Source: a bacterium | Lineage (GTDB): Bacteria; UBP7; UBA6624; JBBIMK01 | DNA: 28,147 nucleotides | Assembly: GCA_037444445.1 (NCBI GenBank) | Contig: JBBIMK010000027.1 | Span: 1-28,147, forward strand | Direction: 5' to 3' | Part shown: one piece after another, positions 6,488 to 21,458 of the stretch | Layout: each line of letters begins with the position of its first letter | Position numbering within the stretch: position 1 is the first letter of the stretch | Program-made: the position numbers and the translations under genes | Notes under the pieces: generated by a model | Database searches by the model: none | What the model saw: the letters and a program-made list of their open reading frames with translations, nothing else | What the model was told of the DNA's origin: nothing

Positions 6488-7864
6488 TCATCTACGGGAT
6501 AGGGAAAATGGCAAGACAGAAGCAAGAGTGGGATACTCAAATAGAATCATCAGTAATCTGTCCACACCAACAGCCACGCCGGCGCAAGAGGGCAGGCCAT
6601 AAGCCAGTGCTCTCAAAAATTCAGTCGGCAAGCCACGAATTGAACGTTCTTTCAACTCTTGCCGAAATCTCTTAGCTTGTTCCCGAGTCTCTGTGAGTTC
6701 TGAATAGCCATTCGCTAATTCTATTCCAGCGATGTAAAGCTCAAATCGCTCCAGTGTGGAAGGGTCATCTTTTTTGGGTTTTGACATCGTGCCGAGTTCA
6801 GCAGGATAGTCGTAGAGGAAGACCGGACGGCGGATTCCCAGATTCGGCTCCACACGCTTCGTCAGCAAGTAGAAATAAATGTCCTTCCAGGCAAAGCCGG
6901 GGGCAGCGGTTTTCACTTCCTCTGAAACCATTTCTGGCAGATGGTAAAAATCCGCGGTCCGGTAAATCGGTAAGCCAGTGTAACGACGAAAGACATCTAC
7001 CAGTTTCCATCTTTCCCAGGGTGGAGTGAAATCAACCCGGTGGCTCATCCTGTTTACCACAGTCTTACCACACAACTTCCTCACCAGAAAATAAAGCAGG
7101 CTTTCCACCTCCTTCATCAGGGTCAGATAATTAGCGTCAGAACGATACCACTCCAGAAGGGTGAATTCTGGATTATGAAGGGGACTGAACTCTCCCTGAC
7201 GAAAAACGGGCGCCAGTTGAAAGATTTTCCGGCACTCAGCCACCAGTAACATCTTCATAAAGTATTCGGGAGAAGACTGAAGATAATATCGGCGTTTCCT
7301 GCCTCCGATGTGAAGAAATGCAGGAATAGAGTGGATTCCCGGGTCCAAAGCAGGATAGGGGTGGAGAATGGGGGTTTGAACCTCCAGATATCTCCTTCGC
7401 CGGAAGAAGGCCCTGATGGCATCATAAAGGGAAGCCCTTTGCGGGAGAATCTTAGGGTTTTTCAGCCCCCAGAAAAAGTCTTCCCACGAGGAACGAGTGG
7501 CGGGAAGACCACGGTAGCGATAGAGCAGATGAACACTTTCCGCAACCGCCTTACCTTTTTCAATCCTCTGCCCGGACCGACGGGATTTCGCTCCACTCCA
7601 GCAGGCGAGGACTGCCACCCGGTCACCCAACCGAAGGGCGAGAGGATGTGAGGAAAAAAACTTTATGATTCCAGTGGCATCGCGAAGCCAGAGAACACTC
7701 CCCGAAGAAGATGGGAACAGGGCAATCACCCGCCCGCATACACAAGAGCGGAGGGGTTTTTTCTGCAAAAACTCTTGAATGGTGCACGAAAAAGCCCCCA
7801 AAAAAAGAGAAGACCCACGGGACCTTTTTCGAACCCCTTTCTCCTCCCATTTGGATTTTTTCAT
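6488..7864 (-). CDS. epmA: EF-P (R)-beta-lysine ligase-like class II aminoacyl-tRNA-synthetase paralog (EpmA/GenX/PoxA type) with an extra N-terminal OB-fold-like region of about 140 aa
   Basis: The catalytic core matches E. coli EpmA blocks SSPEYFMKMLLVAECRKIFQLAPVFRQGEFSPLHNPEFTLLEWYR, ERFELYIAGIELANGYSELT and GVAVGVDRLLMIL. The N-terminal CGRVIALFPSSSGSVLWLRDATGIIKFF resembles the anticodon-binding OB fold of LysRS/AspRS. The start is uncertain because the SD AAGGAG abuts the ATG. Confidence 0.8.
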   Translation of the reverse strand: MKKSKWEEKGVRKRSRGSSLFLGAFSCTIQEFLQKKPLRSCVCGRVIALFPSSSGSVLWLRDATGIIKFFSSHPLALRLGDRVAVLACWSGAKSRRSGQRIEKGKAVAESVHLLYRYRGLPATRSSWEDFFWGLKNPKILPQRASLYDAIRAFFRRRRYLEVQTPILHPYPALDPGIHSIPAFLHIGGRKRRYYLQSSPEYFMKMLLVAECRKIFQLAPVFRQGEFSPLHNPEFTLLEWYRSDANYLTLMKEVESLLYFLVRKLCGKTVVNRMSHRVDFTPPWERWKLVDVFRRYTGLPIYRTADFYHLPEMVSEEVKTAAPGFAWKDIYFYLLTKRVEPNLGIRRPVFLYDYPAELGTMSKPKKDDPSTLERFELYIAGIELANGYSELTETREQAKRFRQELKERSIRGLPTEFLRALAYGLPSCAGVAVGVDRLLMILFEYPTLASVLPFSLSRR

Positions 7865-8203
7865 CTCCTTCGCAATCCCTCAATGATTAGCATAGCACCC
7901 TTTTTAGCCCGAGTGTATTGGTTTTGTTCATACTACTTCAGTATCCTGACTCACCAGAAGCACGGATTTAATCCGAACTCCAGCCGGGTTATGGGTGAAA
8001 CTGGTTTTTATAATGGTGTGATTTCTATCTCATTTTCTATTGATATAAGTCATCCAATTGGCTGAATGAAAGATGATAAGATGATGATGGTGAGCGGTAA
8101 ATAAAGGAAACAGGAGGGAAAGTTCGGTTTTATCAACATTCAAGATTAAAGAAAAAGGACAATGGAGGTGGACGACCTCAAAAATTCAGGATAGGAGGTA
8201 TTC

Positions 8204-8890
8204 ATGAAGGAAAGAGATGAAAAAACAGTTTTACGATTAAGTATTCAGGTGAGAGTCCAGCATTTTCTACTTATGCTCAGTGTTACTATGCTCATCCTGA
8301 CGGGCCTTGCTTTGATGTACAGCGATAGTTGGTTAGGAAAACTGATGATTTTCCTGGAGGGAGGGTTTGAAACCCGGGGATTCCTCCATCGGATTTCTGC
8401 AATCCTTCTCTTTCTCGGAGTGATTTACCATTGGCTGTATATTTCGTTGACGCGGGAGGGTCACGAAGAATTTTTACAGATTCTGCTTCGCCTTCAGGAT
8501 TTTCGGGACCTTGGGCATGCAGTGCTTTATGATGTTGGGCTACGAAGCCAGCCTCCACAATTTGGGAGGTATGGATACCGGGAGAAATTTCAATACTGGG
8601 CTATGGGCATATTAATTTTATTGATGCTGTTTTCTGGAATTATCCTCTGGTATCACAACTTTTTTCTCGGCGTATTGCCTAAATGGGCTATGGATTTGAC
8701 ACTGGTTGTTCACGGTTCTGCAGGCACTATACTCTTTCTCTTTCTGGTTCTCTGGCACTTTTATATGGTTCACTGGGCTCCTGGAAAGTTTCCCTTCTCT
8801 ATGACCTTCTGGCATGGCAAAATTACTCAGGAAGAGTGGGAAAGAGAGCATCCTCTGGAATGCATGCAGAAAAAGAATGAAAATCAGTAA
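8204..8890 (+). CDS. Membrane b-type cytochrome, 4-TM FdnI / Ni_hydr_CYTB-like (copy 1)
   Basis: A strong SD AGGAGG at 8193-8198 lies 5 nt before the ATG. There are four hydrophobic helices with conserved His residues (RVQHF, LHRISA, VHGS...WHFYMVH) in the pattern of diheme b subunits. It is a clear paralog of 9940-10929. Confidence 0.8.
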   Translation: MKERDEKTVLRLSIQVRVQHFLLMLSVTMLILTGLALMYSDSWLGKLMIFLEGGFETRGFLHRISAILLFLGVIYHWLYISLTREGHEEFLQILLRLQDFRDLGHAVLYDVGLRSQPPQFGRYGYREKFQYWAMGILILLMLFSGIILWYHNFFLGVLPKWAMDLTLVVHGSAGTILFLFLVLWHFYMVHWAPGKFPFSMTFWHGKITQEEWEREHPLECMQKKNENQ

Positions 8891-9938
8891 GGTTTGGGGA
8901 GTGATATTCCTGATCGGGGGCATGGTGGCGGTAGAGGCTGTTCCCGGCTTTGCCCAGGTAGACCCCTTGCGGCGTTGTCTTCTATGCCACGGGAAAGCGG
9001 GTTTTAAAGAGGTATTAGAGGGCGGTAAGGAACGACCGCTCTACATTGATGTAGAGGATTTTAGAGGTTCCGCTCATGGCAATATGGTTTGCACTATATG
9101 CCATACAGATGTGCGAACGATACCTCATTTGAGCCGGCCACGAAGGATTCACTGTCTCCAGTGTCACTACGAAGGAAATGTGGTTGGGGCTCCTGTGGAG
9201 AGAAAACCGGAGAAATACAAAGAAAGCGTCCACGGGAAGGCACTGGAAAAGGGCGACCCCAGGGCTCCGGACTGCCGGGATTGTCACACTTCTCATTCTG
9301 TGCGTCAAGCCTCAGATTCTGCCTCTACTGTGAATAAAAGGCATGTGCCTGAAACCTGCGGCCGCTGCCATCTCTCCGTGTTCACTGCTTACTCCCAGAG
9401 TGTGCACGGAACCGCCCTATCCAAAGGGATTCTGGAATCTGCAGCCTGCTCCGATTGCCACCGAGAACATGACCTTCTACCCAAGGATGACCCTCGTTCC
9501 TCTCTATACCCTCAAAATGTTGCCAATACCTGTGCTACCTGCCATCAGAATGAAACCCTGATGAGAAAACTGGGCATCCCTGTCAAGCAAGTGCAGGCAT
9601 TTAAGGAAAGCTTCCACGGTGTTGCCATAGAATTTGGTTTTCTCAAGGTTGCCAACTGCGTAAGTTGCCATGGTTATCACGATATACTTCCACAGTCTGA
9701 CATTCGTTCTTCTATCCATCCCACCAATCTGGCAAAAACCTGCGGGAAATGCCATCCCAGGGTTACGGCGATGGTGGCCAGAGGAAAAATTCATGTCCTG
9801 CCTACGGAACCATCTTCTGGAATTGTCTATTGGGTGAGCCAGTTCTTCAAATGGTTCACCATTCTGGTTCTCTTAGGGTTATTTTTACACATTCTTTTGG
9901 ACCTCTTTGGTCGTTTCCGCGCCCATAGGACGACCTGA
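8877..9938 (+). CDS. Nonaheme c-type cytochrome with N-terminal signal peptide and C-terminal TM anchor
   Basis: Nine CXXCH motifs are present (CLLCH, CTICH, CLQCH, CRDCH, CGRCH, CSDCH, CATCH, CVSCH, CGKCH). The signal-like N-terminus is MKISKVWGVIFLIGGMVAVEAVPGFAQ. The hydrophobic C-terminus is IVYWVSQFFKWFTILVLLGLFLHILLDLF. I chose the start at 8877, which overlaps the upstream stop by 14 nt. The track start at 8814 lies inside the cytochrome b gene. Confidence 0.9.
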   Translation: MKISKVWGVIFLIGGMVAVEAVPGFAQVDPLRRCLLCHGKAGFKEVLEGGKERPLYIDVEDFRGSAHGNMVCTICHTDVRTIPHLSRPRRIHCLQCHYEGNVVGAPVERKPEKYKESVHGKALEKGDPRAPDCRDCHTSHSVRQASDSASTVNKRHVPETCGRCHLSVFTAYSQSVHGTALSKGILESAACSDCHREHDLLPKDDPRSSLYPQNVANTCATCHQNETLMRKLGIPVKQVQAFKESFHGVAIEFGFLKVANCVSCHGYHDILPQSDIRSSIHPTNLAKTCGKCHPRVTAMVARGKIHVLPTEPSSGIVYWVSQFFKWFTILVLLGLFLHILLDLFGRFRAHRTT

Positions 9939-9939
9939 T

Positions 9940-10929
9940 ATGATGTCATACCCTGACGAAAATCCTCCCCGGGAGCCCCAAGGGGCAAAAATTCCACCGC
10001 AGAAGGAGAATCTCGCTCAGCGAATTCAGAAAGTTTTTTCGGATTTAGATTATCCCCTGGACGAGGAGATTGTAGAGGAAATCCTGCAGGATGTTCGGAA
10101 AAGAGTTGAACAGGAAATTGTAAAACAAAGAAGGAAAGAAGAAAAAGAACGCCGGGAGGCGAGAGAATTCGTTACCCGATTTAACCTGAATATTCGGGTT
10201 CAACACTTTCTTTTAGCGGTGGCTGTGCTTCTTCTTATTTTCACTGGCTTACCCATAAAATTTCACGAGTCAGCGTGGGCAGATATCTATTTTCGCTTCC
10301 TGGGCGGGTTATCCCTCAGCCGGTGGCTTCATAGATTGGCTGCCATCCTGCTGACGGGAATCAGCCTGTATCATCTTTTCTATATCTCTTTTCATCCGGA
10401 AGGAAAAAGAGAGTTTCGGCTGATGATTCCCACCCGGAAAGATTTCAAAGATTTTTGGCAGAATATTCGGTTTTATCTGGGATTATCCAGTCAGAAACCG
10501 AAATTTCACCGCTTTTCCTATGTGGAAAAATTTGATTACTGGGCGGTTTACTGGGGTGTAGTTATTATGGTTGTTTCCGGTTTTCTTCTCTGGCTTCATG
10601 ATTGGACCCTGGCAATCCTCCCGAAGTTCATCCTGGATATTGCCCGGGAAGTTCACTCGGATGAAGCGTTCCTGGCCACGGTGGCAATTATTATGTGGCA
10701 CTTTTATAATGTCCATCTGAATCCTCACAATTTTCCATTCAACCCCAGCATCTTTACAGGCAAGATTTCTCGGGAGAAAATGCGAGAGGAGCACCCACTG
10801 GAATATGATGAAATATTCATTGAAACTCTTACAACTGCTTCAACTTCTCACACTACCGCAGTAGCCACATCCTCACCATCCTCTGAAGATTCTTCCCCTC
10901 CTCCCGAACCTTCTGAGCATCACCTATGA
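9940..10929 (+). CDS. Membrane b-type cytochrome, FdnI / Ni_hydr_CYTB-like (copy 2) with a charged N-terminal extension and an S/T/P-rich C-terminal tail
   Basis: The core RFNLNIRVQHFLLAVAVLLLIFTGLP...LHRLAAILL...VHSDEAFLATVAIIMWHFYNVH is collinear with copy 1. The ATG at 9940 lies 1 nt after the upstream TGA (9936-9938). About 80 K/E/R-rich residues precede TM1. The C-terminal tail is TASTSHTTAVATSSPSSEDSSPPPEPSEHHL. Confidence 0.8.
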   Translation: MMSYPDENPPREPQGAKIPPQKENLAQRIQKVFSDLDYPLDEEIVEEILQDVRKRVEQEIVKQRRKEEKERREAREFVTRFNLNIRVQHFLLAVAVLLLIFTGLPIKFHESAWADIYFRFLGGLSLSRWLHRLAAILLTGISLYHLFYISFHPEGKREFRLMIPTRKDFKDFWQNIRFYLGLSSQKPKFHRFSYVEKFDYWAVYWGVVIMVVSGFLLWLHDWTLAILPKFILDIAREVHSDEAFLATVAIIMWHFYNVHLNPHNFPFNPSIFTGKISREKMREEHPLEYDEIFIETLTTASTSHTTAVATSSPSSEDSSPPPEPSEHHL

Positions 10930-12947
10930 AAATCAAGTGGTCTCTATGGTTTCCAGTCACTCTGGTTTTATTTTTTGTGCTGTTTATTACCGGGAAAGCC
11001 ACGGATTCTCCGTCTTTTTGTGGTTCCTGCCATTATATGAAGCCTTTCTATGAAAACTGGCAAAGTTCCAGCCATGCCCGGGTGAACTGCAATAAATGTC
11101 ACTATGCAAAGGGGTTCCGTGGCTACATAAGGGGAAAAATGGCACTTCTCGGAGAGATAACAAAATACTATACTCACACCTACACACTTACCCCTCATGC
11201 CAGAATAGAGGATGGGAATTGTCTAACCTGCCACCCTTTCAAAAAACTTGGCGAAAAAATCACATATCGCAGGAACATACCATTCCGTCATCAGAGCCAC
11301 TATGATAAAGTTTCACGCGGTATCCGCCTGAGGTGCACTTCCTGTCATTCCGAACTGGTTCAAGGAAGCCATACCGCCGTGACAGAATCTTCGTGTTTCT
11401 ACTGCCATTTCATCGGCGTGGCATTTCGCCAACCCCTGTCGGAGTGCAACACCTGTCATGGTTCTCCTGCTGAGGAAATACTGCTTCAGGGAATGAAATT
11501 CAGTCATTCTAAGTTTCTGAAAACCGGTGTGGATTGTTTGACCTGTCATGTGGAGGTAGTCAGCGGTGCAGGAGATGTGCCTCAGGAAAAATGTCGTACC
11601 TGTCATATTCAACGGGAATTAGCCTGGAGTGAGGCTCAGAAACTGCACCAGGTTCATGTGACTCAACAATCTGTGAAATGCAATTCTTGCCACACCGAAC
11701 TGACGCACGGAAAAATTCAAATGCTGGAAACTCTATACCCGGAATGTCGTTCCTGTCATGGAGCCATGCATACCCTTCAGGAACAAATATATATGGGCAC
11801 CTTTCCTATCGGGGGTGAGGAACCCTTACCTGACCCGATGTTTCTGAGTGGCGTGGACTGCACTGCCTGTCACCTTTCTCAGGAATCTATGGGGATTTCT
11901 CAGCACCCCAGAAAACTTGCCAGGGCATCTCCTTCCGCTTGCCTAACCTGTCACCCTGAAGGGTTCAACCAACTTTTAATCGCCTGGCAAAACGATGTTC
12001 AAAGCGAAGTCCAAAATCTGGAAAAATTCGTAGATTTTCTCGGGCGAGTGACTCAGGATGAAAAGACACCGAAAAACTCTCAAAAAACAATGCGAACAAA
12101 AGAATGGAAAGAAATTCAACAGGTTCTCCATTCTATTCGTCAGGATGGCAGTTGGGGTGCGCACAACATTCGCCTGACCTTTCATCTTTTGTCTTTCGCC
12201 TATTCAAAAATCTCAGAAGAATATTCTCGTCTCAGTGTGCCTCCGTTTCAACCCCTACCGGAAACTCGGTTTTTTATCTCCCTCTATGGTTGCAATGAAA
12301 CCTGCCATGTGGGCGTTGAACGCAAATCTGTTCTCCAAAAAGAATGGGTTTTCCCCCATGATATTCATCTCTTCAAAGCCAGCCTGGACTGCAATACCTG
12401 TCATTCCACTGAACCCGTGGAAACAAGTACCCATGGTAAATCCCTGTTCACTGCTTCCTCCTGTTCCTCCTGTCATCATTCAGCAAAATGGAAGAGAACT
12501 TGCGTCTCCTGTCATCCGGTTCAGGCTCAGATGTATTCGGGTTCCGTATGGGGAGAGAACTCTCCGGATGCGATGCAATCCGTCGGAATCACCTGCGAAA
12601 TGTGTCACCAAAATGAAAAGGGGGAAATCATCCGCTTCTCCGTGAACAGTTGCCTCTCCTGCCACGAAAATTCTTCCGTGGATGAAATGAGGAACAAACA
12701 GCAAACCATTCGGCAGTCATTAAAAATAGTGGAACAAAACCTGACGATGGCTCAAACTCAGTTGCTATCAGAAAAGGGTAAATCTCTATTAGAAAATTGG
12801 AGAAACCTATACACACTGAAGGAAATCCTGGAGTGGCTCAAGAAGGATGGTAGTTGGGGTGCCCACAACTTGATACTTTCACAAAGGTTGTTAGAGAAAA
12901 TCCTCCCGCCATCAGAAGAGTTGCGAAAAGAGAAGGAGAATTTATGA
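10926..12947 (+). CDS. Large membrane-anchored multiheme c-type cytochrome (17 CXXCH plus 1 CX3CH) with a NapC/NirT/NrfH-like N-terminus
   Basis: It has an ATGA start/stop overlap with the upstream gene. An N-terminal TM helix (WSLWFPVTLVLFFVLFITG) is followed by CGSCHYM...SSSH...CNKCH, as in NapC/NrfH anchors. I counted 17 CXXCH by eye plus CNETCH. The octapeptide DGSWGAHN occurs twice. Confidence 0.9.
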   Translation: MKIKWSLWFPVTLVLFFVLFITGKATDSPSFCGSCHYMKPFYENWQSSSHARVNCNKCHYAKGFRGYIRGKMALLGEITKYYTHTYTLTPHARIEDGNCLTCHPFKKLGEKITYRRNIPFRHQSHYDKVSRGIRLRCTSCHSELVQGSHTAVTESSCFYCHFIGVAFRQPLSECNTCHGSPAEEILLQGMKFSHSKFLKTGVDCLTCHVEVVSGAGDVPQEKCRTCHIQRELAWSEAQKLHQVHVTQQSVKCNSCHTELTHGKIQMLETLYPECRSCHGAMHTLQEQIYMGTFPIGGEEPLPDPMFLSGVDCTACHLSQESMGISQHPRKLARASPSACLTCHPEGFNQLLIAWQNDVQSEVQNLEKFVDFLGRVTQDEKTPKNSQKTMRTKEWKEIQQVLHSIRQDGSWGAHNIRLTFHLLSFAYSKISEEYSRLSVPPFQPLPETRFFISLYGCNETCHVGVERKSVLQKEWVFPHDIHLFKASLDCNTCHSTEPVETSTHGKSLFTASSCSSCHHSAKWKRTCVSCHPVQAQMYSGSVWGENSPDAMQSVGITCEMCHQNEKGEIIRFSVNSCLSCHENSSVDEMRNKQQTIRQSLKIVEQNLTMAQTQLLSEKGKSLLENWRNLYTLKEILEWLKKDGSWGAHNLILSQRLLEKILPPSEELRKEKENL

Positions 12948-13441
12948 ACACAGCGAAAGTAAAAACATATTTTCGGATTCAGCTTACGAATAATAACCTA
13001 ACACAGGTCTTACCAAAAAGATGCAGGCTCATGGCAACGGTGGCATGGCTGGTCATCTGTTCCGGTGGGTTCCTCAATGTAAAAATTACCAATGAAGAGT
13101 GTATAGCCTGTCATGAAGGAGTGGAGAAAATAGCACCTGTGCATGAAAAGGTTTCCTGCCAGGATTGTCATCACGACATCCAGGAGATTCCGCACTCTGT
13201 TCCAACGCAACGGATTGATTGCCTCCGATGCCATCAAGAATTGATGAATTTATGGGTAGGGGACCCGCACCTTGCGGCGAGAGAAAAAGGAAATAAGAAT
13301 GCTCCCGACTGTCAGACCTGCCACGGGAAGCACGACTTGAAAACCTGGGGGAGAAAAAAGGCGGAAACATCAGAAATTCAACGACAAAGAGTGCAAATCT
13401 TTTGCAACACCTGTCACATGGCCGCCTTGGTGGAAGTGTAA
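12944..13441 (+). CDS. Pentaheme c-type cytochrome, secreted or membrane-tethered
   Basis: It has an ATGA overlap with the upstream stop, and SD AAGGAG at 12933-12938 lies 5 nt before the ATG. Five CXXCH motifs are present (CIACH, CQDCH, CLRCH, CQTCH, CNTCH). A hydrophobic segment MATVAWLVICSGGF follows a basic N-region. Confidence 0.85.
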   Translation: MNTAKVKTYFRIQLTNNNLTQVLPKRCRLMATVAWLVICSGGFLNVKITNEECIACHEGVEKIAPVHEKVSCQDCHHDIQEIPHSVPTQRIDCLRCHQELMNLWVGDPHLAAREKGNKNAPDCQTCHGKHDLKTWGRKKAETSEIQRQRVQIFCNTCHMAALVEV

Positions 13442-13568
13442 TTGCCAAAATACTTATCCAGAAGTTCCCGACTCTTTTAAGATAATTCAGGCTTTTGAGG
13501 AGATTTTTCGCGCAAAATTTTCTTCTCCTGTCTACCCTCTTTCCTCTCACTTTTAGGGTTCATTTACC

Positions 13569-13910
13569 TCACTCCTCCGCAGGGCCATCCAGTTTTCTGC
13601 TTCCATTCTGGTAAAGCATAACCACGGCATTCGCGCGGGATTTATCAGCACACACGCGAGCCTGCTTCCGTTCTAATTCTACCGGACCCTTTTTCACCCT
13701 GCAAAAGCCGAATTTCTCAAAGTATCCTGTCAAATCTGTAGTGATGTAAACTTCATCCGAGGGAAAATGTTTTATGAGGTAATGGACGATAGTTTTGCCG
13801 ATGCCCTTTCCCCGGTATTCGGGCAGGACGCCCAAACAGCCAAGTTCATAGCAATCCCCGTGAGGGCGGATACGACCGAATCCTACGATGACACCGCCTT
13901 TCTTGGTCAT
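13569..13910 (-). CDS. GNAT-family N-acetyltransferase, N-terminally truncated (possible remnant)
   Basis: The acetyl-CoA-binding core is LGVLPEYRGKGIGKTIVHYLI, followed by YFEKFGF. The protein is only 113 aa and lacks about the first 40-50 residues of a normal GNAT. There is no SD before the ATG, and an in-frame TAA (13944-13946) closes the frame 33 nt upstream. Confidence 0.55.
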   Translation of the reverse strand: MTKKGGVIVGFGRIRPHGDCYELGCLGVLPEYRGKGIGKTIVHYLIKHFPSDEVYITTDLTGYFEKFGFCRVKKGPVELERKQARVCADKSRANAVVMLYQNGSRKLDGPAEE

Positions 13911-13943
13911 AAGAAATTGCCGATGAAAGAGAACTCCGAATCT

Positions 13944-14926: not shown

Positions 14927-15655
14927 ATGGCTAAACAAAAATATTCAGGCATACTGCTGCTAAGACGGAAGGGGCTCACCGCCCCTATGGAGGACTATCT
15001 GAAAGCCATCTATTCCCTGCAGCAAAAGGGAATGAACGCTACCACCCTTGCTCTGGCAAAAGAGATGAAGGTTTCCCCACCTTCTGCCACTTCCATGATG
15101 AAGAAACTGGCAGATTGGAAATTGGTGCGTCACACTCTGTATCTGGGGGTTCGGCTCACGCCCCTGGGAGAAAAAATCGCTCTGGAAGTCATCCGTCATC
15201 ATCGCTTGTTAGAATTATATCTTTCTCACTCGCTGGGGTATTCCTGGGACGAAGTTCACCAGGAAGCGGAAAAATTGGAGCATTTTATCTCGGAAGATTT
15301 TGAGAGTCGTATGAGCCAGGCGCTGGGGAACCCAAAACGGGACCCCCACGGCGCACCCATACCGACTAAAAAGGGAACCTGGGAGGAGATTCCTTCCTTT
15401 TCCCTTGCCTCCGCTTCCCCGAAAAATTGCCTGATTATGCAAGAAGTGGAGGATGAGGACCCGGAATTACTTCGCTATCTGAGTCAGTTGGGCCTGTATC
15501 CCGGGGTGGAAATTTCCGTGCTGGAAAAACATCCATTTGAGGGGCCCTTATATCTTCGCATCGGAAAATCTCATCATTACCTCGGACATAAAGTCGCTGA
15601 CCGCATTCGTGTCATCCTGAAAAAGAAACGGAGAAAGGAAGTGAAAGAAAAATGA
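14927..15655 (+). CDS. DtxR/MntR/IdeR-family metal-dependent transcriptional repressor with a C-terminal SH3/FeoA-like domain
   Basis: MEDYLKAIYSLQQKG...VSPPSATSMMKKL is the wHTH, HHRLLELYL...HQEAEKLEH is the metal-ligand helix region, and DPHGAPIP is also present. The C-terminal segment LIMQEVEDEDPELLRYLSQLGLYPGVEISVLE is the FeoA-like part. An alternative start is at 14987. Confidence 0.9.
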   Translation: MAKQKYSGILLLRRKGLTAPMEDYLKAIYSLQQKGMNATTLALAKEMKVSPPSATSMMKKLADWKLVRHTLYLGVRLTPLGEKIALEVIRHHRLLELYLSHSLGYSWDEVHQEAEKLEHFISEDFESRMSQALGNPKRDPHGAPIPTKKGTWEEIPSFSLASASPKNCLIMQEVEDEDPELLRYLSQLGLYPGVEISVLEKHPFEGPLYLRIGKSHHYLGHKVADRIRVILKKKRRKEVKEK

Positions 15656-16617
15656 GTCCCTGGTTTTTTATAAAAAAGAAGAAAACAGATACGAAGTGGA
15701 AGCGGGAACTCTTTGAGGATGTTTTGAAGATTCTGTATGCGGAATCGCAGACATCGGAAGGGGCCACGGCAGAATTGCTCGCTAAAAAACTCCATATTTC
15801 AAGCAGAAGAGCGAATCAACTCATTCAAACTTTGCTGGAAAAAGGGCTGGCTACAAAAGACGAGGAAAGGATTCAACTGACTTCTGCTGGAAAAGCCCTG
15901 GGGTTGCATCTGGTGCGGGCACATCGGCTGTATGAACGCTACCTGGCCGATGACACCGGGGTGCCATTAAGGGATATACACCGATTAGCGGACCGGAAAG
16001 AGCATCAATTGACCGAGTCAGAAGTGCAATCTCTGGAAGCCCGCCTCGGATTTCCCGCTTCCGACCCGCACGGCGACTGGATTCCAAACGAGCAGGGTGA
16101 GCCCAGAGTCACAGAAGAAAAACCCATTCTTCTGAACCGGTGGAGCCCCGGAAAACCCGCTCGTATTGTCCACATTGAAGATGAGCCAGAATCCACCTTT
16201 GTCCAAATCCTTTCCGCCGGGCTACTGCCGGGCACTGACATTCTGGTTCAGGAAATTTCTGAACGCGGCATTCACATCACAGTGGATGGAAATGAAATCT
16301 GGCTGGCTCCGGCTCTTGCAGGTCAAATTGAGGTGAATACACCCTTACCGATGAAACAGTCCCTCTGGCTTCGTGCGAAAACTCTATCCCAACTCCAGCC
16401 CGGAGAAAAGGGACGGGTCCTGGCGATTGCCCACCACGTTCGCGGTCTGCCCCGGCGCAGACTCCTGGACCTGGGATTTACTCCGGGTGCTCGCGTAGAA
16501 TGCGCTTTGAAAAGCACTTTCGGTAGAGGAGACCCCTCGGCATACCGCATACGAGGCACAGTGGTTGCCCTGCGAAGAGAACAAACAGAGCAGATTTTCA
16601 TTGAACCAGTGGAGTAG
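15652..16617 (+). CDS. DtxR-family regulator fused to two tandem FeoA domains
   Basis: It has an ATGA overlap with the upstream stop. The DtxR-like part is FEDVLKILY...RRANQLIQTLLEKGL...AHRLYERYL...HRLADRKEH...DPHGDWIP. FeoA-like domain 1 covers about res 159-228 (PGKPARIVHIEDEP...LLPGTDILV). FeoA-like domain 2 covers about res 244-319 (LQPGEKGRVLAI...LGFTPGARVE). Confidence 0.85.
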   Translation: MSPWFFIKKKKTDTKWKRELFEDVLKILYAESQTSEGATAELLAKKLHISSRRANQLIQTLLEKGLATKDEERIQLTSAGKALGLHLVRAHRLYERYLADDTGVPLRDIHRLADRKEHQLTESEVQSLEARLGFPASDPHGDWIPNEQGEPRVTEEKPILLNRWSPGKPARIVHIEDEPESTFVQILSAGLLPGTDILVQEISERGIHITVDGNEIWLAPALAGQIEVNTPLPMKQSLWLRAKTLSQLQPGEKGRVLAIAHHVRGLPRRRLLDLGFTPGARVECALKSTFGRGDPSAYRIRGTVVALRREQTEQIFIEPVE

Positions 16618-16641
16618 AAGGAAGTTTCATCAGGAGGCAAA

Positions 16642-17454
16642 TTGCCTGTATCTCCTCATTCCTGCAAAACCTGCCCGATGTATGTGAACCGATTGGGCGT
16701 AGATGTATCCCGATGGGATTATCTCATTGCCCTGGCAGGAAATCCAAACACGGGGAAAAGCACATTGTTTAACGCCCTCACGGGATTAAAACAGCATATC
16801 GGCAACTGGCCCGGAAAAACAGTTTCTCGCGCAGAAGGAGGATTTCAATTCAACGGAAAAAAGTATAAATTGGTGGATTTGCCGGGGACTTATTCTTTGC
16901 TTTCAGCATCCGAGGAAGAAGAAATTGCCAGGGACTTCCTGCTTTTCGCTAACCCGGATGTGGTGATGATTGTCATGGATGCCACCGCCATTGAGCGGAA
17001 TCTCAACCTGACTTTACAGATACTGGAAATCACTCCACGCTCAGTCCTCGTGTTGAACTTGATGGATGAAGCCAGAAAGAAGGGAATTTATGTGGACCAT
17101 CGGCATCTGGAGACAGAATTGGGCATTCCAGTGGTTCCCATCGTTGCCCGAACGGGAGAAGGATTAAGTTTTCTGATGCAAACAGTTTCGGAAGTCATTG
17201 AAGGCAGAATCTCTCTGAAGCCCAGGCACATCCCTCTGGACTCTGATTTGGAATCCGCGGTTCAGCAATTGCTTCCACTCCTGCAGGAGGCATTCCCTGA
17301 CTTTCCCAATCCTCGCTGGATTGCATTGAGGTTGTTGGATGGGGATGCCTCGGTTTCTGCTGTTCTAACCAGAAATCAGGAGGGAAATGCTTTCAGGAAA
17401 GTGGCGGAAAAAGAAAATGAACAGGGGAGAAGTTTTGACAGAAATAGAGCGTAA
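16642..17454 (+). CDS. feoB: Ferrous iron transporter FeoB, N-terminal GTPase (G) domain plus the start of the helical domain, ending at a stop codon
   Basis: The G1 motif is GNPNTGKST, the G2/G3 region is GKTV...DLPGTYSL, and the helical-domain motif is RWIALRLLDGD. The TTG start at 16642 lies 4 nt after AGGAGG (16632-16637). The N-terminal extension contains CKTC. The ORF stops at 17452-17454, before any membrane domain. Confidence 0.85.
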   Translation: MPVSPHSCKTCPMYVNRLGVDVSRWDYLIALAGNPNTGKSTLFNALTGLKQHIGNWPGKTVSRAEGGFQFNGKKYKLVDLPGTYSLLSASEEEEIARDFLLFANPDVVMIVMDATAIERNLNLTLQILEITPRSVLVLNLMDEARKKGIYVDHRHLETELGIPVVPIVARTGEGLSFLMQTVSEVIEGRISLKPRHIPLDSDLESAVQQLLPLLQEAFPDFPNPRWIALRLLDGDASVSAVLTRNQEGNAFRKVAEKENEQGRSFDRNRA

Positions 17455-18835
17455 ACAGCAAATTTTATTGCAAAAGGCAGATGCACTCCGACGGTCACTC
17501 CATATAGACTTTCGGGACCGGCTTGTAGAAACCATTTACTCTGAAGCCCATCGGATTGCAGAGGCAGTCACGCGAGTGAAACCGAATCCTGCCACCGACC
17601 TCGACCAGCGGATAGACCGCATCGTCACTCACCCTATTTTGGGCTTACCCTTGATGCTTTTGGGCCTGGCTCTCGCTTTCTGGATAACCATTGTGGGCGC
17701 CAACTATCCATCCGAAATGATTGCCCGTCTTTTGTTCGCGGTGGAAAATTATGGGAGCAAATTCTTTGATTGGATGGGCATGCCCTGGTGGGTTACTGGA
17801 TTTCTCTGGAATGGGGTGTATCGCGGCCTTGCCTGGGTAGTCAGCGTGATGCTACCCCCCATGGCAATTTTCTTTCCGCTCTTCACCATTCTGGAGGACC
17901 TGGGCTACCTTCCGCGAGTTGCCTTTAATCTGGATTGGCTATTTAAGAAGGTGGGAGCGCACGGGAAGCAGGCATTAACGATGACGATGGGTTTCGGGTG
18001 CAATGCCGCAGGGGTAATTGCCACACGCATCATTGAATCGCCCCGAGAGCGTCTGATTGCCATTTTGACGAATAATTTTGTTCCCTGCAATGGGCGATAC
18101 CCCACACTGATTATGTTAGGAACGATTTTTGTGGCAGGGGCTTTCCCACCAGCGTTTGCATCGTTTGCCGCCGCCGGCGCTGTGATGGGTTCAGTTCTCA
18201 TCGGCATCTTGTTCACCTTCCTTTCATCCTATCTTCTTTCCCGCACGGTTCTGAAAGGGCAAGCCAGCGCCTTTACCCTTGAACTCCCCCCCTACCGCAC
18301 ACCAAACATCAAGCGTATTTTGTATACTTCCTTTATTGACCGAACAATTTTTGTCCTCTGGCGGGCGATGGTGATGGCCGCTCCCTCAGGTGCTGTCATC
18401 TGGATTCTGGCGAATATCCACATCGGAAATGAAAGTTTGTCCAACATAATCACCCGGTGGCTAAATCCTCTCGGTTACGCCATCGGCCTGGATGGAGTCA
18501 TTCTTCTGGCGTATATCCTCGCCATTCCCGCTAACGAGATTGTTGTGCCCACCATCGTGATGGGCTATCTCAAAGCGGGGATGATGATGGAACTGGAAAG
18601 TCTATCCGAGCTACGGCATCTTCTGGTAGAGCAGGCGGGATGGACTTTGCTCACAGCGATTTGCCTGATGTTATTTTCAGTGCTCCACAACCCCTGCTCC
18701 ACCACCGTCCTGACCATTTACAAAGAAACAGGGAGCAAAAAATGGGCAATCATCGGCGCACTTTTCCCCCTGGGATTTGCCTTTCTAACAACCTTTCTCG
18801 TCGCTTCCATCTGGAGGTTGCTCTTGAGAGGATGA
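17387..18835 (+). CDS. feoB: Ferrous iron transporter FeoB, remainder of the helical domain plus the membrane (gate/permease) domain, in a different frame
   Basis: DQRIDRIVTHPILGLPLMLLGLALAFW is the typical entry into the FeoB membrane domain, and multiple TM segments follow to the C-terminus. This ORF overlaps the upstream ORF by 68 nt in the +1 frame. AGGAGG at 17378-17383 lies 3 nt before the ATG at 17387, and there is another ATG at 17417. Confidence 0.85.
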   Translation: MLSGKWRKKKMNRGEVLTEIERKQQILLQKADALRRSLHIDFRDRLVETIYSEAHRIAEAVTRVKPNPATDLDQRIDRIVTHPILGLPLMLLGLALAFWITIVGANYPSEMIARLLFAVENYGSKFFDWMGMPWWVTGFLWNGVYRGLAWVVSVMLPPMAIFFPLFTILEDLGYLPRVAFNLDWLFKKVGAHGKQALTMTMGFGCNAAGVIATRIIESPRERLIAILTNNFVPCNGRYPTLIMLGTIFVAGAFPPAFASFAAAGAVMGSVLIGILFTFLSSYLLSRTVLKGQASAFTLELPPYRTPNIKRILYTSFIDRTIFVLWRAMVMAAPSGAVIWILANIHIGNESLSNIITRWLNPLGYAIGLDGVILLAYILAIPANEIVVPTIVMGYLKAGMMMELESLSELRHLLVEQAGWTLLTAICLMLFSVLHNPCSTTVLTIYKETGSKKWAIIGALFPLGFAFLTTFLVASIWRLLLRG

Positions 18836-20018: not shown

Positions 20019-21458
20019 TCAGCCGCTCTCAGAAGATGGCTTTACTTCTAATTTCAACGCCACTCTGTTGGTTCCTCCCATCACATACTTGATTTCAATC
20101 TCCTGCCCGATATAGGAAGAGAGATTTTCCACGCAGATGTGAAGAGAGGGCTCCACTTCCAGTTTCGTATTTTGGACCAGGTAGTAAGTGTTACCATTGC
20201 TGGCAGTCACGGTGATGTCAGAGCCCACATTTACGGAAACCAGTGTAACCCCTTCCACTTTGAACTCAGGAAAGGGAATGGCTCCATAATCGGTGAGGGT
20301 CCTGGTGGGAGTAGTGGTGCATCCGGCGGGCGGTTCCGGCGGCTCCCCTTCATTCTCTCCCGCCACCTTCGCTTCCACCTTCAGCGCAGTCAGGATATGA
20401 GCGATGTCGTCCCACTGACCCTTTGCCTCCACCACCATTCCCGCTTGCAGGTCGGATAACCCTGTGAAACCCTCCCAGATGGTGTTCTCACTCACCTGCA
20501 CCGTGAGCGTGCCATCGGAGTTCAGAACCGGAACGAATCCCTTTGCTTCACTCAACTGGAGAGTGAAGGAAGAATTCCCGACGTCCACACTTGCTACAAC
20601 ACCCTCTACCGCATCCTGCAATTCAGGGGTAGGAGATAGGCTATGGTCGGAGTGCATGACTACAGCCGTCAGGGTGAGGACGGAAAGGTCCAGGGTCCCT
20701 TTCGCTTCCACCTCATCCCCGATATTCAGGAAGTTGAAACAAGCGGAGCCCGTGCCCTTTCCGGGGCAAACGGTTAAGGGCGTCACCTGGATGGAGACAG
20801 GGATTGAAGAGTGCTCAGGCAAAATCGCCAGCCGTAAATTGGATGCGTCTATGCTGGTCACCCTGCCCTCCAGTTTATCTAAATGTCCGTATCCAGGGTA
20901 ACCCTGCTCGGAGTCATCCACGACCACCGTGGCAGCGACAAGCCCCGTGGACGGGTCGTAGTTAAATTGAACCAGGTCAAAATCCAGAATCAACGTTCCG
21001 GTGGCATTCGGTTGAACGGTGATGTTCCCCTGTATCTGAACCTGTAGAGTGAAAGTATCGCCCGTGGGAACAAACTTTGCCGTGGTCACGTTCCCGGAAG
21101 AGTCCACAAGGGTAATGGAATTAGACAGAGTGATGGTGACCTGATTATACTCACCCGGAGGAATCTGTGCCACATTCACCAGAGTGAGAACACCGGCAAG
21201 ATCCGTCACATCATAGGTAAGCCCACCCGTGGCGGTGGCATCCACCAGAACCAAGGAGGCACCGGTATCCGTATTCGCCAGTTCTGCCTTCAGAACCGTC
21301 ACCAGAACCTGAGAGTAAGTAGAAAGCGGTGAGTCGGTAACATACACACCGACAGATGAACTACCAGACGGAAGCGGCGAACTTCCACCACCTCCGCATC
21401 CCATAGAAAACAGGAAAACCCCGATAACTATCGGAGTCCATAACCAGAGTTTCTTCAA
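20019..21458 (-). CDS. Lipoprotein with an N-terminal DUF4382-like domain and three DUF5666-like beta modules
   Basis: The TTG start lies 9 nt after GGAGG. The signal peptide and lipobox are MKKLWLWTPIVIGVFLFSMGC, followed by GGGGSS. The DUF4382-like pattern is VYVTDSP...VLVTVLKAEL...IPPGEYNQVTITL...LILDFDL. There are three repeats of the EG.V.S.D...L.V.V...G..VEAKG type. Confidence 0.8.
   Translation of the reverse strand: MKKLWLWTPIVIGVFLFSMGCGGGGSSPLPSGSSSVGVYVTDSPLSTYSQVLVTVLKAELANTDTGASLVLVDATATGGLTYDVTDLAGVLTLVNVAQIPPGEYNQVTITLSNSITLVDSSGNVTTAKFVPTGDTFTLQVQIQGNITVQPNATGTLILDFDLVQFNYDPSTGLVAATVVVDDSEQGYPGYGHLDKLEGRVTSIDASNLRLAILPEHSSIPVSIQVTPLTVCPGKGTGSACFNFLNIGDEVEAKGTLDLSVLTLTAVVMHSDHSLSPTPELQDAVEGVVASVDVGNSSFTLQLSEAKGFVPVLNSDGTLTVQVSENTIWEGFTGLSDLQAGMVVEAKGQWDDIAHILTALKVEAKVAGENEGEPPEPPAGCTTTPTRTLTDYGAIPFPEFKVEGVTLVSVNVGSDITVTASNGNTYYLVQNTKLEVEPSLHICVENLSSYIGQEIEIKYVMGGTNRVALKLEVKPSSESG

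Follow-up and report, generated by a model that had tools for sequence, protein, structure and literature searches.

Which respiratory system is encoded by an operon that is composed of two cytochromes b and three multiheme cytochromes c? Such an operon is located on contig JBBIMK010000027.1 of the GenBank assembly GCA_037444445.1, assigned to a bacterium of the GTDB lineage UBP7, UBA6624, JBBIMK01. The whole contig, 28,147 nucleotides (nt) in length, was analyzed and is referred to as the window in the following; the five genes are denoted g1 to g5. An earlier inspection of the letters and translated open reading frames (ORFs), here called the sequence-only reading, had described a combination of b-type subunits and a giant anchored cytochrome that matched none of the textbook Nrf, Nap, Hao, Mtr, or Cbc layouts. 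According to the analysis presented here, the operon encodes, with a probability of roughly 60%, an inner-membrane menaquinol:multiheme-cytochrome oxidoreductase of the Cbc type that exports electrons. The gene families are already known and the gene order has been flagged previously, for hot-spring bacteria, as a putative iron-respiration pathway; the layout is less of an orphan than claimed.

The five ORFs are co-directional, overlap or abut each other, and span positions 8204-13441 of the window (Table 1). The junctions comprise a 14-nt overlap of g1 and g2 (8877/8890), a TGA-T-ATG arrangement between g2 and g3 (9936-9942), and ATGA overlaps at 10926 and 12944; Shine-Dalgarno sequences precede g1 (GGAGG) and g5 (GGAG). 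The start codons chosen for g1, g2, and g3 yield the products recorded for the contig. Together, g2, g4, and g5 provide about 32 heme c sites. These three genes contain 31 of the 34 CXXCH matches found in the six frames of the window, and shuffled versions of their proteins show at most two such matches; the motif density is thus not due to chance. By their Pfam profiles, g2, g4, and g5 are cytochromes of the c7/c3 families, and the N-terminus of g4 belongs to PF03264 (NapC/NirT); none of the five proteins harbors a CXXCK motif. When the sequence was re-read, the ORF sizes, heme counts, junctions, and Shine-Dalgarno sites of the five-gene operon agreed with the earlier description, and its domain assignments were reproduced in Pfam and NCBIfam profile scans of the five proteins. 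Catalytic and porin genes are lacking on the whole contig, as are molybdopterin, iron-sulfur, and beta-barrel genes. A tRNA scan and an Rfam scan of the window gave no hits, a scan for the sigma-70 consensus returned no forward-strand site in 8035-8203, and promoter and terminator scans were uninformative as to the operon ends.

Table 1. Positions of the cytochrome operon and associated features in the 28,147-nt window (aa, amino acids; TM, transmembrane).
Feature	Position	Strand	Description
g1	8204-8890	+	FdnI/HydC-type diheme cytochrome b, 4 TM helices, 228 aa, zero CXXCH; PF01292 49.4 bits
g2	8877-9938	+	Periplasmic nonaheme cytochrome c, 353 aa, Sec signal, 9 CXXCH, C-terminal TM helix with His338 (LHILLD)
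g3	9940-10929	+	FdnI-type diheme cytochrome b, 329 aa, no Cys, charged N-terminal extension of ~75 aa; PF01292 48.1 bits
g4	10926-12947	+	N-terminally anchored 18-heme cytochrome c, 673 aa, 17 CXXCH and one CX3CH (residue 456)
g5	12944-13441	+	Small pentaheme cytochrome c, 165 aa, 5 CXXCH, exactly 10 His
5' region of operon	8035-8203	+	Part of the cassette; GGAGG Shine-Dalgarno at about -10 of g1
Variable 5.9-kb cassette	8035-13921		Cytochrome operon and short GNAT gene
Short GNAT acetyltransferase	13569-13910	-	PF00583, match from profile position 39; in segment absent from L042

The two cytochromes b form the membrane-embedded basis of this interpretation. Both exceed the PF01292 cut-off of 30.1 bits, and their nearest NCBIfam models are the gamma subunits of formate dehydrogenases and b-type subunits of hydrogenases, although the scores fall far short of the equivalog cut-offs. 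Across 16 aligned sequences, comprising orthologues, paralogues, and fused versions, four heme-ligand His residues are invariant (H20, H62, H170, and H185 in g1; H89, H131, H239, and H254 in g3), one each residing in TM1 and TM2 and two in TM4 of the four TM helices. A profile derived from this alignment matches FdnI of Escherichia coli Fdh-N (1kqf, chain C) with E = 2.4e-14, and the conserved His residues align with the columns of the FdnI heme ligands, which we take to be H18, H57, H155, and H169. Loss of the four FdnI-type ligands had been named beforehand as an observation that would refute the sequence-only reading; both proteins keep all of them. A conserved cytoplasmic C-terminal motif is also shared with FdnI. 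The periplasmic partner differs, being the iron-sulfur subunit FdnH for FdnI and a TM-anchored multiheme cytochrome in the operon, and the direction of electron flow is likely reversed. Sequence searches of the PDB with g2 alone and with g3 alone yielded no matches. The N-terminal extension of g3 is charged, cytoplasmic, and present in all g3 orthologues; it is the former linker of a c-b fusion.

The other half of such a fusion is represented by g2. Its nine heme motifs and at least 11 further His residues are invariant or nearly so across the orthologues, enough for bis-His ligation of all nine hemes. The AlphaFold2 model of g2 (predicted local distance difference test score, pLDDT, 88) shows a long C-terminal helix (residues 316-352), and the His of this anchor helix is part of an (L/I)HIxLD motif that is kept in 20 of 26 orthologues. 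A Foldseek search with this model revealed no close fold in the PDB, the only matches being weak, HAO-like ones (E of 0.02 or higher). The protein P0495, encoded on a deltaproteobacterial metagenome-assembled genome (MAG), is a natural single-chain c-b fusion, which shares 45% identity with g2 over residues 12-357 and 52% with g3 over residues 394-577. In other genomes, fusions of 16-18 hemes with a b part (721-889 aa) adjoin the module and show 42% identity to g2 and 37% to g1.

CbcL of Geobacter sulfurreducens (GSU0274) is likewise a single-chain protein, for which nine bis-His hemes and a HydC/FdnI-like membrane part have been described, with one His in each of TM1 to TM3 and two in TM5. 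CbcL is genetically required for the reduction of low-potential acceptors, and its nine bis-His hemes reduce PpcA. The CbcL/MtrH/MtoC family covers a range of 3-23 CXXCH motifs and is present in Fe(III) reducers as well as in Fe(II) oxidizers. In the operon, the five membrane His residues are H338 in the linker helix of g2 and H89 (b-TM1), H131 (b-TM2), H239, and H254 (both b-TM4) of g3, which corresponds to the published CbcL pattern. Based on P0495, the neighboring heme-b fusions, and this five-His pattern, g2 and g3 are assigned as a split CbcL-type unit that is divided in the cytoplasmic linker. The claim that the operon fits no Cbc layout was thus too strong. Common to both systems are the periplasmic nonaheme c domain, the linker TM helix, and the HydC/FdnI-like diheme b part, and both are thought to link the menaquinone pool with periplasmic cytochromes. 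The operon differs in encoding the c and b halves as separate genes in different frames, and in co-translating a second b subunit (g1) and an 18-heme NapC-type cytochrome. A fusion of g2 and g3 by read-through or frameshifting was considered and rejected, since none of the module loci surveyed has them joined.

Among the inner-membrane quinol:cytochrome oxidoreductases of Geobacter, given in a 2026 review as ImcH, CbcL, CbcBA, and Cbc3-6 only, none has the composition of the operon. CbcBA (GSU0593-0594) likewise combines a separate multiheme cytochrome c, anchored by a His-bearing C-terminal TM helix, with a diheme b subunit of four TM helices. Membership in this group was rejected on account of heme count (seven in CbcA versus nine in g2), the number of ligand His residues (three in CbcB versus four in g1 and g3), and the absence of a sigma-54 regulator from the contig. 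CbcB is described as another b lineage with 'no sequence homology' to CbcL, and CbcBA is regulated by sigma-54/BccR.

A further link to the quinone pool is suggested by the N-terminal part of g4. Its first ~100 residues score 38.7 bits with PF03264 (cut-off 24.1) and 44 bits with the NrfH model TIGR03153, compared with a cut-off of 134 bits. A TM helix (residues 3-21) is followed by the first heme motif, C32-x2-C35-H36-x-M38, and by a spacing of 23 residues to heme 2. In an alignment of 55 homologues, all 18 heme sites are invariant, as are M38 of the CXXCHxM motif, 12 non-motif His residues, and the pair H413-N414; K71 is kept in 98%. Desulfovibrio vulgaris NrfH (2j7a, chain C) aligns to the head of g4 at a constant offset of 11, which puts K71 at the position of Lys82, presumably a quinol-site residue of NrfH, and the g4 family profile matches NrfH with E = 4e-14. 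The NrfH-like head proposed for the giant cytochrome is borne out by these features. Together with the ligands of both b subunits, they make three quinone-interacting modules, as postulated earlier, plausible. The single N-terminal TM helix, the CXXCHxM first motif, the 23-residue spacing, and the conserved Lys are shared with NrfH, NapC, and CymA; whereas these proteins possess 4-5 hemes and dock a separate reductase, g4 adds 14 hemes and two helical bundles. ImcH (GSU3259) is also an inner-membrane multiheme cytochrome with a NapC/NirT-like segment. An assignment of g4 to ImcH was rejected because of TM number, first motif, and heme count (three TM helices, CX3CH, and seven hemes in ImcH versus one TM helix, CXXCH, and 18 hemes in g4). 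In Desulfuromonadia, inner-membrane multiheme cytochromes with more than 10 hemes are very rare.

The distribution of the module was surveyed starting from three distant contexts, followed by a scan of one genome per species, which resulted in 35 loci. Orthologues were found in about 25 loci or genomes (44-57% identity for g1, 54-64% for g2, 45-63% for g3, and 34-41% for g4), and the order g1-g2-g3-g4 with 4-nt overlaps is kept in essentially all complete loci. The hosts belong to Bipolaricaulota/Acetothermia, Fraserbacteria, WOR-3 (Hydrothermus), Kryptoniota, and Bacteroidota, all represented by MAGs or single-cell genomes; weaker versions occur in deltaproteobacterial-type MAGs. The individual families are larger, with 1,744 matches for g2, and for g4 244 matches by word index and 315 clusters (50% identity) at E <= 1e-30 in an exhaustive search. 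In Bipolaricaulota, Fraserbacteria, and WOR-3, a cytochrome with 7-9 hemes precedes g1 and carries the same His-bearing C-terminal helix as g2; it is lacking in the window. In these three phyla, the ancestral unit seems to have consisted of two c-b pairs in tandem and g4.

In 20 of about 26 module loci, a Rieske/cytochrome b pair is encoded within 8 kb, and where the order could be read, this pair is followed by a 9-heme cytochrome and a paralogue of g4 (31-33% identity). Kryptoniota and Bacteroidota loci harbor, between further multiheme cytochromes downstream, a gene for a signal-peptide protein of 421-491 aa (15614-16879 in L005, with homologues in L031 and L032), which gave Porin_4 and OMP barrel matches, all sub-threshold. 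This putative porin may represent the outer-membrane part of a conduit. Membership of the operon itself in the Mtr/Pcc porin-cytochrome systems was rejected, since a barrel gene is found neither in the operon nor on the contig and the putative porin is confined to the Kryptoniota and Bacteroidota relatives.

The four-gene order has appeared in print before. For Candidatus Kryptonium thompsonii, the genes JGI4_02289-02302 were listed as a 'Putative Iron Respiration Pathway' (Supplementary Data 6), an annotation-level prediction, and its authors favored ferric iron respiration (Eloe-Fadrosh et al., 2016). The order given there starts with b (fusion), rubrerythrin, b, 'tetraheme c', b, 'tetraheme c', and c3/NapC and continues with c554, Rieske, b, c3, hypothetical, c7, and CxxxxCH (Eloe-Fadrosh et al., 2016). 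It is the order of the loci L005 and L021; in the latter (strain JGI-4), the identities of the core genes to g1, g2, g3, and g4 amount to 52%, 57%, 52%, and 35%. JGI4_02291-02294 (b/'tetraheme c'/b/'tetraheme c') thus share the four-gene core order of the window. The Kryptonia pathway is about three times larger, though, and adds a 17-heme-b fusion, rubrerythrin, the g4 paralogue, c554, Rieske/b, further multiheme cytochromes, and the putative porin, while the window contains the four-gene core and a private pentaheme gene. In literature on 18-heme or octadecaheme proteins and on Acetothermia/Bipolaricaulota with multiheme cytochromes, nothing on this module was found. The same gene order in a characterized complex, which would have refuted the sequence-only reading, was thus not encountered; the four-gene core is nevertheless widespread and already listed in the Kryptonia pathway.

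From the families, the conservation of ligands and motifs, the topology elements, the gene order, and the c-b fusion, we infer subunit contacts, quinol sites, the direction of flow, and an acceptor as follows. Menaquinol would be oxidized at the FdnI-type diheme b subunits g1 and g3, and their two b hemes would carry the electrons across the membrane. They would be received by the nine hemes of g2, a protein presumably docked on the b subunit through its C-terminal TM helix, comparable to FdnH on FdnI or to the two halves of CbcL. From there, electrons are supposed to pass to the membrane-tethered g4 with its 18 hemes, whose NrfH-like head may add a third, periplasm-facing quinol site. Finally, g5 as a possible shuttle, or further cytochromes of the periplasm or outer membrane with genes located elsewhere, could deliver the electrons to an acceptor in the periplasm or outside the cell, e.g. 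Fe(III). This proposal draws on the family and ligands of the b subunits, the split CbcL-type pair g2-g3 and the role of CbcL, and the NrfH-type head of g4. It is also based on the four-gene order retained at 34-64% identity in five candidate phyla, the co-location with Rieske/b genes, the putative porin of Kryptoniota and Bacteroidota loci, and the listing of the Kryptonia genes under iron respiration.

Several points weigh against a menaquinol oxidase that exports electrons. FdnI and HydC normally run in the opposite direction and reduce quinone. The likeness to GSU0274 is drawn from the published description of CbcL. Furthermore, g1 is devoid of a c-type partner of its own in the window, in contrast to Bipolaricaulota, Fraserbacteria, and WOR-3. 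The 28-kb contig encodes neither an outer-membrane conduit nor a member of a periplasmic shuttle family or a terminal reductase. The possible shuttle g5 is a further weak point. In a 97%-identical sister strain (L045), which keeps all five genes, g5 comprises 190 aa and six hemes. A stretch of 118 nt (L045 5730-5847) is missing from the window at 13426/13427, and with it the sixth CXXCH and about 55 C-terminal residues; judged by this comparison, g5 of the window is a C-terminally truncated allele. The ATGA overlap is not shared by L045, where g4 terminates ~20 nt ahead of the g5 start codon. None of the other module loci surveyed has a g5 orthologue after g4, and a PDB search with g5 returned only a weak NrfH-type heme-motif match. 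The gene is lineage-specific and outside the conserved module; the operon of five genes described earlier is real in this organism, but its last gene is not part of the conserved core.

The main alternative is an inward flow of electrons. In that case, g5, g4, and g2 would be fed by extracellular or periplasmic donors, namely Fe(II), a cathode-like mineral, or c3-type cytochromes that a hydrogenase or formate dehydrogenase has reduced. Menaquinone would then be reduced at the b site on the cytoplasmic side, with energy conserved in a redox loop as in Fdh-N, possibly in a reversible manner. The b subunits are of the FdnI type with all four ligands, and the native direction of FdnI in Fdh-N leads from the periplasm to quinone. 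The CbcL/MtrH/MtoC family, shared by Fe(III) reducers and Fe(II) oxidizers, also speaks for inward flow, and for a comparable cluster of multiheme and Rieske/b genes in Zixibacteria RBG-1, Fe(II) oxidation was considered more likely by its authors. On the other hand, CbcL and CbcBA, the nearest analogues that have been studied, function as quinol oxidases, and the relatives of the operon combine the module with Rieske/b complexes, which are usually quinol-oxidizing, and with g4 paralogues. Ferric iron respiration was the preference of the Kryptonia authors, and at neutral pH the reduction of menaquinone by Fe(II) requires an input of energy. Inward flow is hence regarded as unlikely for this operon.

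A more far-reaching proposal concerns the architecture. The b/c9/b/c18 core could constitute a distinct, horizontally mobile respiratory supercomplex, in which FdnI-type quinone sites on the cytoplasmic side and an NrfH-type site on the periplasmic side are connected by one wire of at least 27 hemes. It might then act as a potential-dependent 'gearbox' or a quinone loop, and serve thermophilic candidate phyla as a plug-in for mineral respiration or its reverse, in parallel to the Rieske/b version with its paralogous 18-heme output. Such a supercomplex is speculative and distinctly unlikely.

The bulk of g4 raises the question whether this protein conducts electrons or also uses them. The g4 family profile matches OcwA of Thermincola potens (6i5b) with E = 1.1e-29 over its last hemes and three-helix bundle, including a DGSxGxHN motif, and also recognizes GSU1996, HmcA, and MccA. 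The AlphaFold2 model (pLDDT 79) displays two long helical bundles (347-436 and 582-659), and a Foldseek search with it retrieved OcwA (E = 8.6e-4), MccA, NrfH (template-modeling score of 0.59, normalized to NrfH), and NrfA/ONR. Each of the two bundle modules ends in DGSWGAHN. Accordingly, g4 is composed of an NrfH/NapC-like tetraheme head, c3/c7-type repeats, and two OcwA/NrfA-like helical-bundle modules. The giant cytochrome of the sequence-only reading is indeed anchored and NrfH-like, but the three-helix-bundle modules make it more than the wire it was taken for. The last hemes and the three-helix bundle with the D-G-S-x-G-x-H-N motif are common to g4 and to OcwA and the NrfA/MccA/ONR fold family. 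OcwA differs as a 9-heme cell-surface protein of a monoderm with two open-site hemes; the bundle is present twice in g4, which also has an inner-membrane tether and no evident His-His distal pocket.

Based on these similarities, g4 could be a membrane-anchored fusion resembling NrfH-NrfA, in which a heme of open coordination in an OcwA/NrfA-like module reduces a soluble nitrogen or sulfur oxyanion or another small substrate, with electrons supplied by its own NrfH head and the b/c modules. In extracellular electron transfer, OcwA serves as a terminal reductase; it has two five-coordinate hemes and reduces nitrite and hydroxylamine in vitro. In g4, just ~17 conserved axial-ligand candidates (15 non-motif His and two Met) are available for 18 hemes. 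These numbers and the absence of CXXCK leave at most one or two five-coordinate hemes, one of which is expected to be the NrfH-type quinol-site heme, accounting for one 'missing' ligand. Moreover, H282 is the only His of g4 at the distal His-His motif of OcwA, where it aligns with the first of the two, and the Foldseek template-modeling scores for the catalytic families are low (0.13-0.25). The ligand count and the lack of CXXCK point to g4 as probably a wire more than a dedicated catalyst, and a fused reductase is considered clearly improbable.

Two side observations concern g4. A 26-nt direct repeat, 92% identical (12142-12167 and 12844-12869), encodes the DGSWGAHN of both bundles, a nucleotide-level match that is unusual for an otherwise diverged internal duplication. 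In the homologues P0270, P0311, P0338, P0340, P0357, P0369, and P0389 (1,320-1,440 aa), a g4-like region (query ~10-430) forms the C-terminus of larger fusions.

The operon was probably acquired as a cassette. In a syntenic relative (L042; 83-88% nucleotide identity on both sides), the 5.9-kb segment of the window is replaced by 780 bp (L042 15870-16649) with a uracil-DNA glycosylase gene. The Rho protein of this relative (L042 1656-3026), taken as a proxy for the host, has its best named matches in unclassified 'bacterium' and 'bacterium JZ-2024 1' MAGs (67-72% identity), all others reaching at most 62%; the host thus appears to represent a deep lineage. The G+C content of the cassette (0.463 versus 0.501 for the rest of the contig) is the lowest of any 5.9-kb stretch. 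A mobile-element origin was sought and is unsupported: the cassette has neither direct nor inverted repeats at its flanks, and the search revealed neither a tRNA nor an integrase. That the cassette is a recently acquired, decaying passenger devoid of a current respiratory role would suit its absence from L042, its low G+C content, the truncation of g5 by the 118-nt deletion, and the missing cytochrome partner upstream of g1, but is highly improbable given that g1 to g4 are intact with every heme motif and ligand, that the coupling junctions and Shine-Dalgarno sites are preserved, and that the second strain keeps all five genes.

Of the steps in extracellular electron transfer, the one carried out by inner-membrane quinol oxidases is understood least, and these enzymes have been studied almost exclusively in Geobacter and Shewanella. 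The module appears to be a common solution outside Proteobacteria. Its compact, self-contained form of four to five genes could be transferred to a model organism. Work on it would bear on quinol oxidation by split CbcL-type units and by an NrfH-headed 18-heme protein, on the direction of flow, and on the iron respiration claimed for Kryptonia and related lineages. The presence or absence of the cassette in close relatives provides a natural experiment on its ecological value.

Upstream of the cassette, the contig encodes CstA, PpsA, an HD/GGDEF protein, and a class II aminoacyl-tRNA synthetase-like protein. The gene of the latter (6488-7864, reverse strand; 458 aa) is divergent from the operon, and its product has a D/K/N catalytic core (138-454) and an unassigned N-terminal region of ~137 aa. 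The downstream flank comprises GNAT, a DsbC-like protein, two DtxR/FeoA proteins, and a split FeoB. The GNAT protein has 113 aa only and may be N-terminally truncated. In the iron-uptake cluster (14927-18835), two tandem DtxR-type proteins are fused to FeoA domains, the second without a helix-turn-helix match. Two genes with a 68-nt overlap make up the split FeoB, one for the G domain (16642-17454) and one for the membrane part (17387-18835), a division that is also seen in L042. A functional link between the operon and DtxR/FeoAB was rejected: the iron-uptake genes are syntenic in L042, which has no operon, and their presence with or without the cassette means that adjacency is no evidence of function. 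A second indel relative to L042 (19573-21646) contains, in the window, a gene for a DUF4382/DUF5666 protein of 479 aa (20019-21458, reverse strand) that L042 does not have.

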